Shown piece after piece: positions 3,173 to 10,149 of a stretch of DNA of 64,000 nt. The stretch is taken from NCBI RefSeq assembly GCF_024223415.1, contig NZ_CP100500.1. One strand, written 5' to 3'. The notes under the pieces were generated by a model. It was given only the letters and a program-made list of their open reading frames with translations, was not told where the DNA came from and searched no databases. Source of the stretch: Escherichia coli. GTDB lineage: Bacteria > Pseudomonadota > Gammaproteobacteria > Enterobacterales > Enterobacteriaceae. A program made the position numbers and the translations under genes. Numbering within the stretch: position 1 is the stretch's first letter; the number at the start of each line of letters is the position of its first letter.

Positions 3173-3769
3173 ATGAAAAAAGCACTTCTCGCAGCCGCTC
3201 TGGTTATGGCTTCTGGTTCCGCCCTGGCTGTAGATGGTGGTCATATCGACTTTAACGGTATGGTACAGTCCGGTACCTGTAAAGTGGGTGTGGTAGATAC
3301 TGGTATGCACAGCGTTACCACTGATGGCGTGGTTACCCTGGATACTGCGAATGTTACTGATACTTTTGCTGAAGTTAGCGCAACTGCTGTCGGTTTACTG
3401 CCGAAAGAGTTCATGATTTCTGTTGAGTGTGATCCAGGTGCTCCGAAGAATGCTGAGTTAACTATGGGTTCTGCAAGTTACGCGAACACCAGCGGTACCC
3501 TGAATAACAATATGAACATCACTGTTAACGGTATTGCACCGGCTCAGAACGTAAACATTGCAGTTCATAACATGAAAAACAAAGCTGGCGCTGCTGAAAT
3601 TAAGCAGGTCCATATGAACAACTCTTCTGAAGTTCAGGAACTGACATTAGACGCAGAAGGTAAAGGCCAGTACGTATTTAACGCATCTTACGTTAAAGCA
3701 CCGAACAGCCCGGCTGTAACTGCTGGTCATGTAACCACTAACGCGCTGTACACCGTTGCTTATAAGTAA
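3173..3769 (+). CDS. yadN: fimbrial major subunit (chaperone-usher pilin)
   Basis: MKKALLAAALVMASGSALA signal peptide, Cys pair, pilin-like C-terminal beta strand (ALYTVAYK); AGGA 9 nt upstream of ATG 3173 (ORF track opens at 3164). Confidence 0.75.
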   Translation: MKKALLAAALVMASGSALAVDGGHIDFNGMVQSGTCKVGVVDTGMHSVTTDGVVTLDTANVTDTFAEVSATAVGLLPKEFMISVECDPGAPKNAELTMGSASYANTSGTLNNNMNITVNGIAPAQNVNIAVHNMKNKAGAAEIKQVHMNNSSEVQELTLDAEGKGQYVFNASYVKAPNSPAVTAGHVTTNALYTVAYK

Positions 3770-3788
3770 TTGATGGTGTGTTGAGCAT

Positions 3789-3818
3789 AAGGTTTGCCAG
3801 CAGGCAAACCTTATTTTC
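3789..3818 (+). terminator. intrinsic terminator/attenuator after major pilin gene
   Basis: perfect 10 bp stem aaggtttgcc / ggcaaacctt with 5 nt loop followed by ATTTT; typical partial terminator between pilin and chaperone genes. Confidence 0.5.
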
Positions 3819-3855
3819 GCGAATTTAATCTTTCTACAGACAGCAAGGAGTGCTT

Positions 3856-4581
3856 ATGTTTCCCTTGGTTAAAAAAACGGTTAGTGCATTATTTGTGAGT
3901 ACTCTGTTAGCCAGTGCACCAGCATTCGCTGACATTATTATTTCCGGAACACGTATCATTTATAACGCTGATAAAAAAGATGTTAACGTTCGTCTGGAAA
4001 ATAAAGGGAATCGCCCCTTACTGATTCAGAACTGGTTGGATACTGGCGACGACAATGCCGATCCCAGCCAGATCAAAGTGCCGTTTACCGCGACCCCACC
4101 AGTTTCACGCGTGGAGCCAAAACGCGGTCAAACCGTAAAAGTGATGTATACCGGTGCAACAGCCCTGCCGAAAGACCGTGAAAGCGTCTACTGGTTTAAC
4201 GTGCTGGAAGTGCCGCCTAAGCCGAAAGATGCCGAGGCTGACAAAAACTTGTTACAGCTGGCTTTCCGCACACGCATCAAACTCTTTTATCGCCCGAGTG
4301 GGTTACAGGGAGAACCGGCTGAAGCACCGGCGAAAATCACCTGGAAATTAAACAACGCTCAGTTACAGGCAAATAACCCAACGCCATATTACGTGTCCTT
4401 TAATGAGGTCAAGCTGGAAAGCGGCGGCAAAACCTACAACGTCAATTCCAGCATGGTCGCGCCGTTCAGCCAGGCAAGCTTTGGCGTAACCGGTCTGCCA
4501 GGAAGCGTTTCATCCGGAAAAGTGGTCTTTAAAGCGATCAACGACTTTGGCGGCAACATTGATGGTTCCGCAACATTCTAA
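3856..4581 (+). CDS. ecpD: periplasmic fimbrial chaperone (PapD-like)
   Basis: signal peptide then PapD-fold sequence (RIIYNADKKDVNVRLENKGNRPLLIQNW...); AAGGAG RBS 5 nt upstream of ATG 3856 (ORF track opens at GTG 3850). Confidence 0.8.
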   Translation: MFPLVKKTVSALFVSTLLASAPAFADIIISGTRIIYNADKKDVNVRLENKGNRPLLIQNWLDTGDDNADPSQIKVPFTATPPVSRVEPKRGQTVKVMYTGATALPKDRESVYWFNVLEVPPKPKDAEADKNLLQLAFRTRIKLFYRPSGLQGEPAEAPAKITWKLNNAQLQANNPTPYYVSFNEVKLESGGKTYNVNSSMVAPFSQASFGVTGLPGSVSSGKVVFKAINDFGGNIDGSATF

Positions 4582-4622
4582 AAAATAAACGGATTCTTTT
4601 TAACATCGCCAGGAATGCAACC

Positions 4623-7785: not shown

Positions 7786-7799
7786 CAGGGACAGCCACC

Positions 7800-8414
7800 A
7801 TGAAAATAAAAGTCATCGCTACACTGATTGCTACTGTTGCCGTGGGTGCTAGCGTTAGCAACAATCTCACTTATGCGAGTACGACATCCGCCTCTTTAAC
7901 CGTAAACAGTAACCTGACTATGGGTACCTGTAGTGCGAAGATACTGGATACCAGTGATACCGAGATCAATATCGTCGCCTTTAACAATGTTTATATTTCT
8001 GAACTGGTAGCCAAAAGCAAGGTGCAACCATTTAAAATCCGCTTCAGCGATTGTGCCGGCCTTCCAGGAAAGAGTGCTCAACTCGTCTTAGCGCCCAGAG
8101 GAGGTGTCGGTTGTGCAGGCGGCTGGTCTAACACTGCAGCCTTTTCGAATAAACTCAGCTCCACCACCGAAGGTGGTTCAAGCAGAGCAGCAGTCGAAGT
8201 ATGGACGACTACAAGCCCCGAGGGAAATGGCAGTGAGCAATTCAATTGTTATCAGCGAAACGTCATCAATGTCGATCTTTCTAATGCCAGCACAACACAG
8301 CCTTATGATTTTGATTTAAGCGCGCGAATGATTATCGCTGACGGGTGGACAGTCAATGACGTATTACCGGGTAATTTCCTCTCTCCTACGACTTTCACAA
8401 TCACTTATCAGTAA
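7800..8414 (+). CDS. yadL: fimbrial minor subunit
   Basis: signal peptide MKIKVIATLIATVAVGASV, pilin-like, C-terminal FTITYQ. Confidence 0.7.
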   Translation: MKIKVIATLIATVAVGASVSNNLTYASTTSASLTVNSNLTMGTCSAKILDTSDTEINIVAFNNVYISELVAKSKVQPFKIRFSDCAGLPGKSAQLVLAPRGGVGCAGGWSNTAAFSNKLSSTTEGGSSRAAVEVWTTTSPEGNGSEQFNCYQRNVINVDLSNASTTQPYDFDLSARMIIADGWTVNDVLPGNFLSPTTFTITYQ

Positions 8415-8434
8415 TAGCGGATAAGGATATTAGA

Positions 8435-9025
8435 ATGCTATGCAGGCATCATAAATTTGTACGTTTTTTGGGGCTGGCAACAGCCCTCATTACGCCTTTT
8501 GCCTATGCTGGTCAGGATGTGGATCTCACGGCGCAGATTGTGGCCAGCACCTGTCAGGTGGAAGTCAGTAATAATGGCGTTGTCGATCTCGGCACTGTGA
8601 CGCTGGACTATTTTGCTGACAATGTGACCCCAACGACGGATTACGCGGGTGGCAAAACGTTTAATGTTAATGTGGTCTCCTGCGACAACATTCAAACGAC
8701 GCAATCACAAATGAAATTAGATTTTCAGCCGCAGGCGGGATCGCTTGCGCAGGCAAATAATCAAATATTTAGTAACGAATATGAACAGCAGGCTACCGGG
8801 GCAAAAAACGTCGGCATTGTGATATTTTCGGCACAGCCGAATCAGCAGACATTTAATGTACGCGGGACGGATGGTTCCTCAACAGCGATTTATTCAGTCG
8901 CGCCTGGCAATGCTGTTCCCTCAACCTGGACCTTTTATTCCCGTATGCAGCGAGTGAATAATGCCCTTCCTCCCGAATCAGGGATGGTGAGAAGTCAGGT
9001 TATTGTTAACGTTTCTTACGAATAA
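8435..9025 (+). CDS. yadK: fimbrial minor subunit
   Basis: signal peptide, Cys pair, C-terminal VNVSYE. Confidence 0.7.
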   Translation: MLCRHHKFVRFLGLATALITPFAYAGQDVDLTAQIVASTCQVEVSNNGVVDLGTVTLDYFADNVTPTTDYAGGKTFNVNVVSCDNIQTTQSQMKLDFQPQAGSLAQANNQIFSNEYEQQATGAKNVGIVIFSAQPNQQTFNVRGTDGSSTAIYSVAPGNAVPSTWTFYSRMQRVNNALPPESGMVRSQVIVNVSYE

Positions 9026-9036
9026 TAAGGATATTT

Positions 9037-10149
9037 ATGCAAAGGAAAGGCAATAGACTGTTAATTCAGTTATGCAGTGCGATACTGCTATTTTTTACCA
9101 CATCCTGGTATGCATTGGCGAATGAATGTTATATAGAACGCAATGCTGAAGGGCCTTATGAGATGGTGATAACCTCAAAACCCTTCAGTATACCGACACG
9201 AATGGTGACAGCACCGGAAGAAATAGCCTTTGCGACCTGGGATGTGCATATTGACCTTCGGGGGGATAAGATTGGCTGTAAATCCTTAGGGAGTGACACA
9301 AGCTCAGTACATTTTGTTAACTATGCAGATGCTGATTTGTTATCAACCTATACCACCACTAATGGCTTTGCCTTATTGAAAACAACCGTTCCTGGTGTTG
9401 TTTATTCTGTGGAACTTGTTTGTGTAAGTTGTGGTGCCGCAGAGGAACTGGATTTGTATCTTCCAGCACAGAGTGGCGCAGATAACCATACGGGGAATGC
9501 TGGTAACAAATGGGCCTATGAGTACAGCGATGATAGTTGGTATTTGAGGTTTCGTTTTTTCACGACTCCTGAATTCAAACCCCAAACTGGGGTTTCAGAA
9601 GGATACGCCAAACCAGGTAGAATCGCCTCCTGGTATATAGGTAATACTGACCAGCCATGGATAAATTTCTACGTTAAAGATACCTCCGTACATTTTTATG
9701 TGGACGAACCGACCTGTCAAACAGTTGCCCTGGCTCAAGACCTGGGTAATGTCAGCGGCAACCAGGTAACGCTTGGGAACAGCTATGTTTCGGAAGTGAA
9801 AAATGGGCTTACACGGGAAATTCCTTTTTCTATCCGCGCTGAATACTGTTACGCCAGTAAAATTACGGTTAAGTTGAAAGCGGCAAATAAACCCAGCGAC
9901 GCCACACTAGTAGGTAAAACGACTGGCTCTGCTTCAGGCGTGGCTGTAAAAGTGCATTCGACTTACGAAAATAGCAAAGTCTTATTAAAAGCGGACGGTA
10001 GCAACTCCGTTGAGTACAACTTCGCAATCTGGGTAAACAACCTGCTGAATTTGCCCTTTACGGCACAGTTGGTACCGGATGGTAGCGGTAATGCTGTCGG
10101 TGTTGGAACCTTTTCAGGTAACGCGACCTTCTCCTTTACCTACGAATAA
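9037..10149 (+). CDS. yadC: fimbrial tip adhesin-like subunit (two-domain)
   Basis: 370 aa, signal peptide, N-terminal putative lectin domain plus C-terminal pilin domain ending FSFTYE; last gene of operon. Confidence 0.7.
   Translation: MQRKGNRLLIQLCSAILLFFTTSWYALANECYIERNAEGPYEMVITSKPFSIPTRMVTAPEEIAFATWDVHIDLRGDKIGCKSLGSDTSSVHFVNYADADLLSTYTTTNGFALLKTTVPGVVYSVELVCVSCGAAEELDLYLPAQSGADNHTGNAGNKWAYEYSDDSWYLRFRFFTTPEFKPQTGVSEGYAKPGRIASWYIGNTDQPWINFYVKDTSVHFYVDEPTCQTVALAQDLGNVSGNQVTLGNSYVSEVKNGLTREIPFSIRAEYCYASKITVKLKAANKPSDATLVGKTTGSASGVAVKVHSTYENSKVLLKADGSNSVEYNFAIWVNNLLNLPFTAQLVPDGSGNAVGVGTFSGNATFSFTYE

Follow-up and report, generated by a model that had tools for sequence, protein, structure and literature searches.

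An intact type II Yad fimbrial operon, probably functional and deeply divergent from that of K-12, between folK and panB of Escherichia coli

The Yad fimbriae of Escherichia coli were described by Wurpel et al. (2013) as a core-associated type that occupies the same site as Salmonella Sta (PMC3559732), and replacement of fimbrial clusters at analogous Salmonella sites was reported by Yue et al. (2012) (PMC3373541). The yad operons of the K-12/CFT073 type (type I) are repressed by H-NS. When the Sakai genes ECs0139-0145 were expressed from a plasmid they gave rise to thin flexible fimbriae (PMC7098969), and the native promoter of the O157 version drives its transcription, while deleting this version lowers gut colonisation. 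A 2026 study that required 80% HtrE identity scored 70% of E. coli as Yad-positive, with 0% in phylogroup E and 5% in phylogroup D (PMC13245861), and host-associated yadK/L/M/N signals have been reported (PMC12547504). Here we compare with these systems the yad operon at positions 3173-10149 of a 64,000-nucleotide stretch of E. coli contig NZ_CP100500.1 (assembly GCF_024223415.1), which we call the window. We are confident that it is a probably functional gamma4-class type II operon at the yad site, lying in an ancient block (about 2776-10205) that is exchanged by recombination, type I being the form found in K-12 and uropathogenic E. coli (UPEC). The operon itself is already known, as it belongs to the sequenced, annotated and partly studied O157:H7 type.

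The operon consists of seven uninterrupted open reading frames (ORFs) on the + strand, flanked by folK (2352-2831) and panB (10285-11079). The first encodes a YadN-like major pilin of 198 amino acids (aa) (3173-3769; Pfam Fimbrial, E 1e-8; WP_000709670.1), and is followed by a PapD-like periplasmic chaperone of 241 aa (3856-4581; PapD_N, E 2e-45; PapD_C, E 1e-19) that carries the chaperone motifs GTRIIY and KLFYRP. The outer-membrane usher of 866 aa is read from a TTG start (4623-7223; PapC_N, E 6e-37; Usher, E 3e-157; PapC_C, E 3e-16), and its Usher-domain match spans positions 2-549 of the 549 in the Pfam profile. Three minor pilins come next, YadM-like (7237-7785, 182 aa; Fimbrial, E 3e-16), YadL-like (7800-8414, 204 aa) and YadK-like (8435-9025, 196 aa; Fimbrial, E 1e-9), before a two-domain tip adhesin of 370 aa (9037-10149). 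The Fimbrial domain is found in four subunits and the C-terminal half of the adhesin (residues 235-369), with the YadL-like protein lying below the Pfam threshold and matching the NCBIfam StaE/YadL models. The N termini of the products resemble signal peptides. The two-domain PapD-like chaperone, the three-domain usher and the Fimbrial-domain pilins with a two-domain adhesin are the components that identify a chaperone-usher operon, and the intact seven-gene arrangement given in an initial annotation made from the sequence is borne out both by the ORFs and by the Prokaryotic Genome Annotation Pipeline (PGAP) annotation of strain SCU-316, whose sequence matches the window at 100% over 3000-10300 and which has the same seven genes.

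The NCBIfam models divide the operon into two parts. The usher (NF007337, score 1561 against a cutoff of 830), the chaperone (NF007398, 420 against 285) and the YadK-like pilin (NF011794, 276 against 132) all pass. The remaining products fall short of their models: the pilin with StaA (159 against 230), the YadM-like pilin with StaD, its best match (164 against 228), the YadL-like pilin with StaE (283 against 414) and with the YadL models NF011797 and NF011795 (154 against 206 and 142 against 392), and the adhesin with StkG (61 against 329) and the K-12 YadC-type model NF007269 (30 against 473). Salmonella Sta therefore supplies the nearest named profiles, as the pilin and two minor pilins have their best matches in StaA, StaD and StaE, all of them below cutoff. 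The pilins and adhesins of Salmonella enterica serovar Kotte and E. fergusonii, and the StaD- and StaE-like subunits of Kotte, are below the same cutoffs, and we do not call the Kotte cluster a bona fide Sta, since it lies below the equivalog cutoffs.

The operon of the window and that of K-12 and UPEC are alike in their site between folK and panB, their gene order, their gamma4 chaperone-usher class, the NCBIfam models that their ushers and chaperones pass, their non-ATG usher start and their hairpins after the pilin and adhesin genes. The difference lies in the sequences themselves. Identity to the K-12 proteins is 44% for YadN, 63% for YadV, 60% for HtrE, 49% for YadM, 41% for YadL, 41% for YadK and 26% for YadC, while the flanking proteins are 93-100% identical (PcnB 100%, FolK 93%, PanB 98%, PanC 99.6%). 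The K-12 gene lengths used in the initial annotation are correct (194/246/865/189/201/198/412 aa) and the window departs from them while the flanks match, so its description of a deeply divergent allele relative to K-12 stands. The adhesin has diverged furthest. K-12 YadC is 412 aa long compared with 370 aa here and tblastn finds no similarity between the two, while in B2-type strains the alignment is confined to the C-terminal pilin half (25-30% identity over 44-60% of the query). The usher shares 60% identity with HtrE from K-12, BL21 and a B2 strain, and so fails the rule of at least 80% HtrE identity used in PMC13245861. E. coli E308 carries a yad operon of the K-12 lineage with about 77% nucleotide identity to K-12 in which the usher and yadL are annotated as frameshifted, so the site decays in some strains.

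The divergent block has sharp edges. Nucleotide identity to K-12 falls from 96-100% to 35-75% at about 2776 and returns at about 10205; in 100-nucleotide windows it drops from 89% (2701-2800) to 49% (2801-2900). The left edge is a recombination breakpoint within folK, the last 55 or so nucleotides of which (2776-2831, + strand) belong to the block. folK is consequently a mosaic that matches K-12 and ATCC 8739 up to about 2775 and beyond this matches O157, E105 and E1V33 and cannot be aligned with K-12. The right edge at about 10205 lies ahead of a conserved panB promoter-like site (10223-10250), where K-12 homology resumes. In every yad gene the synonymous divergence (dS) from K-12 exceeds 2.4 or cannot be computed, while the flanks have values of 0.02-0.3, and the intergenic regions and hairpins are likewise unalignable with K-12. 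Allelic replacement, one of the two origins suggested in the initial annotation, fits these breakpoints and the saturated dS between them. The divergence from K-12 is due to ancient lineage replacement and cassette exchange and not to diversifying selection, because dS is saturated inside the block and low in the flanks and the ratio of nonsynonymous to synonymous divergence (dN/dS) is low. Around the left edge we also noted that the C-terminus of FolK (about 18 aa) varies among strains by yad type, that dS versus O157 is 0.35 for folK and 0.03 for the adjoining pcnB, and that in O157:H7 strain 493/89 the folK stop codon is mutated from TAA to TAT, giving a FolK one codon longer that ends at TAG.

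The allele is not an unusual one, being of the O157:H7 type and 100% identical over 2352-11942 to that of E. coli KV7, from pig faeces in Denmark. NCTC10444, AR_0085 and SCU-316 differ from the window by 1-3 positions. The Yad operon of O157:H7 (locus 2) has the same site, the same seven-gene order, the TTG usher start and both hairpins. Its pilin is 100% identical, WP_000709670.1 being found unchanged in strain 493/89, and the chaperone (99%), usher (98%), YadK-like (97%) and YadM-like (92%) proteins are close. The YadL-like protein is only 66% identical (204 aa here, 201 in O157) and the adhesin 81% (370 aa here, 369 in O157), with 69% in the lectin domain. Upstream of yad, strain 493/89 has a deletion of some 67 bp at the equivalent of 2845-2903 of the window; this sequence is present in the window, E105 and E1V33. 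Receptor specificity may differ from that of the O157 version, given the divergence of the YadL-like protein and of the adhesin with its lectin domain.

By megablast, the window type is present over at least 80% of its length in 419 of the 5,426 complete genomes of E. coli, and the K-12 type is found in 3,877 (71%). ATCC 8739 represents a more distant subtype (nucleotide identity about 77%), which as many as about 180 further complete E. coli genomes carry. Carriers of the window type come from many hosts and include all O157:H7 strains listed, and the same operon protein sequences are found again in multiple genomes. The exact sub-allele from yadL to the adhesin (at least 99.4% identical) was found in 20 genomes from humans, pigs, calves, chickens, horses and frogs. 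The figure of 71% agrees with the 70% Yad-positive of PMC13245861, and the O157 genomes scored there as Yad-"negative" do carry the operon type of the window; the phylogroup distribution of this type rests on the literature and on O157:H7.

Outside E. coli the same seven-gene fimbrial order is found between folK and panB in E. albertii, Escherichia sp. E1V33, E. fergusonii, Salmonella Kotte, Pseudocitrobacter and Citrobacter. Usher identity to the window and to K-12 respectively is 97% and 61% for E1V33, 89% and 61% for E. albertii, 82% and 61% for E. fergusonii, 71% and 61% for Salmonella Kotte, and 70% and 59-60% for a Pseudocitrobacter metagenome-assembled genome (MAG). The K-12 usher is 60% identical to that of the window, and those of the Citrobacter and Pseudocitrobacter species are 54-56% identical to the window and 57-60% to K-12. 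A neighbour-joining tree of chaperone plus usher (19 taxa, 1,026 ungapped columns, 200 bootstraps) gave three clades, each with 100% bootstrap support. The first contains the window, O157, E1V33, E105, E. albertii, E. fergusonii together with ATCC 8739, Salmonella and the MAG, the second K-12, BL21, B2 and SCU-111, and the third Citrobacter and Pseudocitrobacter. Within type II the branches come off in the order of the species (E. coli, E. albertii, E. fergusonii, Salmonella). When the window is compared with E. albertii, dS is similar in the yad genes (0.47-1.39) and the flanks (0.44-0.76), as fits vertical descent. From these comparisons the window carries what we take to be the lineage that follows the species tree, with the K-12 form outside it as the outlier. 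The adhesins in the E. albertii, E. fergusonii and Salmonella Kotte clusters differ more, being 48-78% identical to that of the window.

The same data bear on whether the operon could instead be a recent import into the lineage of this strain from a different species (for instance E. albertii or a cryptic Escherichia clade) and not an old resident haplotype. The chaperone of E1V33 is 100% and its usher 97% identical to those of the window, and the switch in folK from K-12-like to O157-like sequence at about 2776 shows that a recombination event took place. Transfer between species also occurs at this site, as the chaperone and usher of ATCC 8739 (phylogroup A) are 94% identical to those of E. 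fergusonii and about 81-83% to the window type, a likeness that suggests exchange between species at the yad locus. However, the yad dS to E. albertii is no lower than the flank dS, the type has about 419 carriers among complete E. coli genomes, which come from many hosts and include all the O157:H7 strains listed, and its branching tracks the species order, so we regard a recent import as improbable and the block as an old resident of E. coli.

The usher frame of this resident type II operon opens at 4563, and TTG 4623 is the only ATG, GTG or TTG ahead of the signal peptide; the next candidate, GTG 4725, falls past it. The translation start (4611-4625, + strand) comprises AGGA at 4611-4614, an 8-nucleotide spacer and the TTG. 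The motif CCAGGRAYGCAACCTTG is kept in all seven aligned loci of the same type, including the Pseudocitrobacter MAG, and TTG is the only option for an usher start in all the same-type operons examined, even at 70% usher identity. Inspection of the frame and this conservation confirm the proposal that TTG 4623 is the only plausible start and that there is no in-frame ATG from which the usher could start. An out-of-frame ATG at 4615 was rejected as a competing start, as it has no spacer to the AGGA and is ACG in ATCC 8739. The usher start is GTG in all K-12-type operons and ATG in the Citrobacter and Pseudocitrobacter operons at the folK-panB site; as K-12 htrE also lacks an ATG start, a non-ATG start is not peculiar to the window, which corrects the initial annotation. 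The conserved weak TTG start probably keeps the level of usher low.

A stem-loop lies 3' of the pilin gene (3787-3818, + strand), with a perfect 12-bp stem at 3787-3814 followed by UUUC (folding free energy, dG, -20.3 kcal/mol; z -3.6), and a second lies 3' of the adhesin gene (10172-10205, + strand), with a 12-bp stem at 10172-10198 followed by ACAUUUU (dG -21.4 kcal/mol; z -7.0). Both qualify as GC-rich stem-loops. Across nine relatives 94.8% of alignment cells at the pilin-gene hairpin can pair, compared with 25-55% when the partner is slid, and two pairs have compensatory U-A to C-G changes, in Salmonella and Pseudocitrobacter. The shuffle control for this covariation is modest, with 27 of 500 shuffles reaching the observed score. 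The adhesin-gene hairpin is conserved within the type and has compensatory changes in the Pseudocitrobacter MAG. K-12 also has hairpins at both positions, which are unrelated in sequence to those of the window, so that the structures have been kept and the sequences have not. The pilin-gene hairpin probably acts either as a partial terminator or by stabilising the 3' end of the pilin transcript, and would thereby raise the ratio of pilin to downstream mRNA. The adhesin-gene hairpin probably terminates the operon, and it lies at the right edge of the divergent block.

Upstream of the pilin gene there is an AT-rich regulatory region (2832-3172, + strand), where the GC content over 2701-3300 is 0.36-0.39, compared with 0.51-0.57 in the flanks; within the yad genes it is 0.42-0.56. 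The block at 3098-3172 is conserved among operons of the same type. By analogy with type I, this region is probably silenced by H-NS. Two homopolymer tracts in this region were considered as a phase switch, using ten loci. The C tract at about 2924-2929 is C6 in the window and most genomes and C8 only in SCU-316, while the T tract at about 2962-2968 is T7 only in the window and KV7 and T8 in the others. These variants are probably minor polymorphism or sequencing error and not a phase switch.

The adhesin is predicted to have a signal peptide (residues 1-28), an N-terminal receptor-binding (lectin) domain (residues 29-222; 9121-9702) and a pilin domain (residues 223-370; 9703-10146), all on the + strand. 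A sequence search of the PDB with the adhesin returned no match, and fold searches were needed instead. The AlphaFold model is confident (predicted local distance difference test, pLDDT, 88.3), and its best PDB matches in Foldseek are the two-domain tip adhesins LpfD, FimH, CupB6 and CfaE; the AF2 model also matches the lectin domains of MrkD and GafD. Adhesins of the 370-aa type in the protein database form a continuum that within E. coli spans 98% to about 53% identity, and beyond it reach 76% in E. albertii, 51% in E. fergusonii and 48% in Salmonella.

As in other chaperone-usher pathways, the seven products with their signal peptides would be exported by Sec, and the PapD-like chaperone would cap each subunit through donor-strand complementation. 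The usher would take the two-domain adhesin first, then the three minor pilins and then many copies of the major pilin, and donor-strand exchange would join these subunits into a thin flexible fibre with the N-terminal lectin domain placed to bind a receptor. The supply of subunits would be set by the pilin-gene hairpin, at which most transcripts probably end or are stabilised, and by the TTG start, which would limit usher synthesis. The whole block is an ancient haplotype, exchanged through homologous recombination within folK and in front of the panB promoter.

Several observations count against this account of a functional, anciently maintained operon. The functional data come from the O157 version and not from this exact allele, and the adhesins of the two versions share only 81% identity, with 69% in the lectin domain. 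To our knowledge none of the type II adhesins has a known receptor. The consensus promoter scan gave 9 sites against a shuffled mean of 11.8, with only a weak one upstream (3012-3041), and no promoter was assigned; repression by H-NS has been shown only for type I. The terminator scan, which defines an intrinsic terminator by a U tract of at least five in eight directly after the stem, reports neither hairpin, the tails UUUCGCGA and ACAUUUUC falling short. The attenuator and terminator hairpins of the initial annotation are real and conserved as stem-loops and lack the U tract of a terminator. The tree is a neighbour-joining one of 19 taxa, and in it the K-12 clade joins the Citrobacter clade at only 57% bootstrap. 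Finally, heterologous expression of the Sakai Yad brought no rise in binding to HeLa, Caco-2 or MDCK cells (PMC7098969).

This last result, together with the AT-rich upstream region in which the scan found no strong promoter and the cryptic, H-NS-repressed state of type I yad in the laboratory (PMC13245861; PMC3559732), would also be expected if the operon were a silent relic, intact in appearance but never expressed and with no present function. Against this, none of the seven ORFs is disrupted, identical protein sequences turn up in multiple genomes, dN/dS is far below 1 in most comparisons, which points to a maintained function, and the O157 version is natively transcribed and needed for full gut colonisation. 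We think a silent relic very unlikely, and continue to read the operon as probably functional.

Selection on the operon was assessed by comparison with O157, E1V33, E105, E. albertii, ATCC 8739 and the Pseudocitrobacter MAG, where gene-wide dN/dS is 0.03-0.28 in nearly all cases. The sole exception is the yadL-like gene versus E1V33, at 0.82 with a dS of only 0.065, which reflects a hypervariable patch at residues 48-62 (7941-7985) with 10 nonsynonymous changes and 1 synonymous, too few to test. This patch is the only hint of diversifying selection. For the lectin domain, on which the initial annotation had proposed a dN/dS check, the ratio is 0.15-0.27 (0.17 versus O157). Diversifying selection on the adhesin and pilins, its other suggested origin for the divergence, is thus not borne out. 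The scarcely credible alternative that the window holds a true ortholog of the K-12 yad operon, diverged within E. coli by strong diversifying selection on pilins and adhesin, can appeal to the adhesin and minor pilins being the most divergent genes (26-49% identity to K-12), to the YadL-like patch and to the high variation published for YadC lectin domains (PMC13245861), but it leaves unexplained the saturated dS even in the chaperone and usher, the low dN/dS, the unalignable intergenic regions and hairpins, and a type II clade that takes in Salmonella and leaves out K-12.

What varies within the ancient type II lineage is the degree of synonymous divergence along the operon. Versus O157, dS is 0.007 in the pilin, 0.024 in the chaperone, 0.24 in the usher, 1.02 in the YadL-like and 0.43 in the YadK-like gene, and within the adhesin it is 0.06 in the signal peptide, 1.43 in the lectin domain and 0.34 in the pilin domain. 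High dS with low dN/dS indicates that old cassettes have been swapped in, and not recent accelerated amino-acid change; within the type, the yadL-like gene and the lectin domain are therefore exchanged as old diverged cassettes under purifying selection.

On balance we lean towards a broader reading in which E. coli "Yad" comprises two ancient lineages that share one site and are not narrowly orthologous. That of the window would have been inherited vertically in Escherichia and Salmonella, and the K-12/UPEC form would either have come in by replacement, from a donor not yet sampled, or go back to a polymorphism that predates the Escherichia-Salmonella split. Balancing selection would keep both, and lectin and YadL cassettes would be exchanged within each. 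An incomplete literature search found no paper that states this two-lineage structure explicitly.

Other features of the window were noted alongside the operon. The interval from panC to rpnC holds a remnant (12038-12217), called an N-terminally truncated pseudogene by PGAP in the identical SCU-316 sequence, and RpnC (12316-13188, with a YhgA-like Transposase_31 domain) has 290 aa here and 300 aa in K-12. The Rfam family PssrA ("plasmid-encoded Shigella sRNA A") matches 57336-57425 on the - strand at full length with 105.5 bits, above its gathering score. This match is chromosomal and lies at the ftsA-ftsZ junction, which is odd for a family described as plasmid-encoded; ftsZ (56193-57344) and ftsA (57405-58667) are both confirmed by Pfam. 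The possibility that the 383-aa ORF at 56193-57344 encodes an IS30 transposase was rejected, as it is FtsZ. Further Rfam matches above the gathering score, at 50908-51216, 51620-51689 and 37018-37131, are three tandem naRNA4 elements (CssrE, derived from repetitive extragenic palindromic sequence), STnc40 and tp2, which are ordinary intergenic RNA elements of E. coli unrelated to the yad operon.

The operon of the window is in itself of little consequence, being an ordinary annotated fimbrial operon of a type studied in O157:H7. Its comparison with type I has wider implications for the family. The weak usher start, TTG here and GTG in K-12, has been kept across deep divergence and offers a small, testable example of how translation may control the stoichiometry of subunits. 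The binding of xylose and annexin A2 by the type I YadC of K-12 and UPEC is not transferable to the adhesin of the window, because the lectin domains have no detectable sequence similarity. Surveys in which Yad is scored by its likeness to K-12 or UPEC genes will miss the lineage. An intact alternative operon occupies the same site in about 11% of complete E. coli genomes, among them all O157:H7 strains sampled. If the two-lineage structure is true, the "Yad-negative" calls in phylogroups D and E, and the signals at yadK/L/M/N in Shiga toxin-producing E. coli (STEC), whether from gene presence or absence or from genome-wide association studies (GWAS), would be artefacts of this dimorphism.

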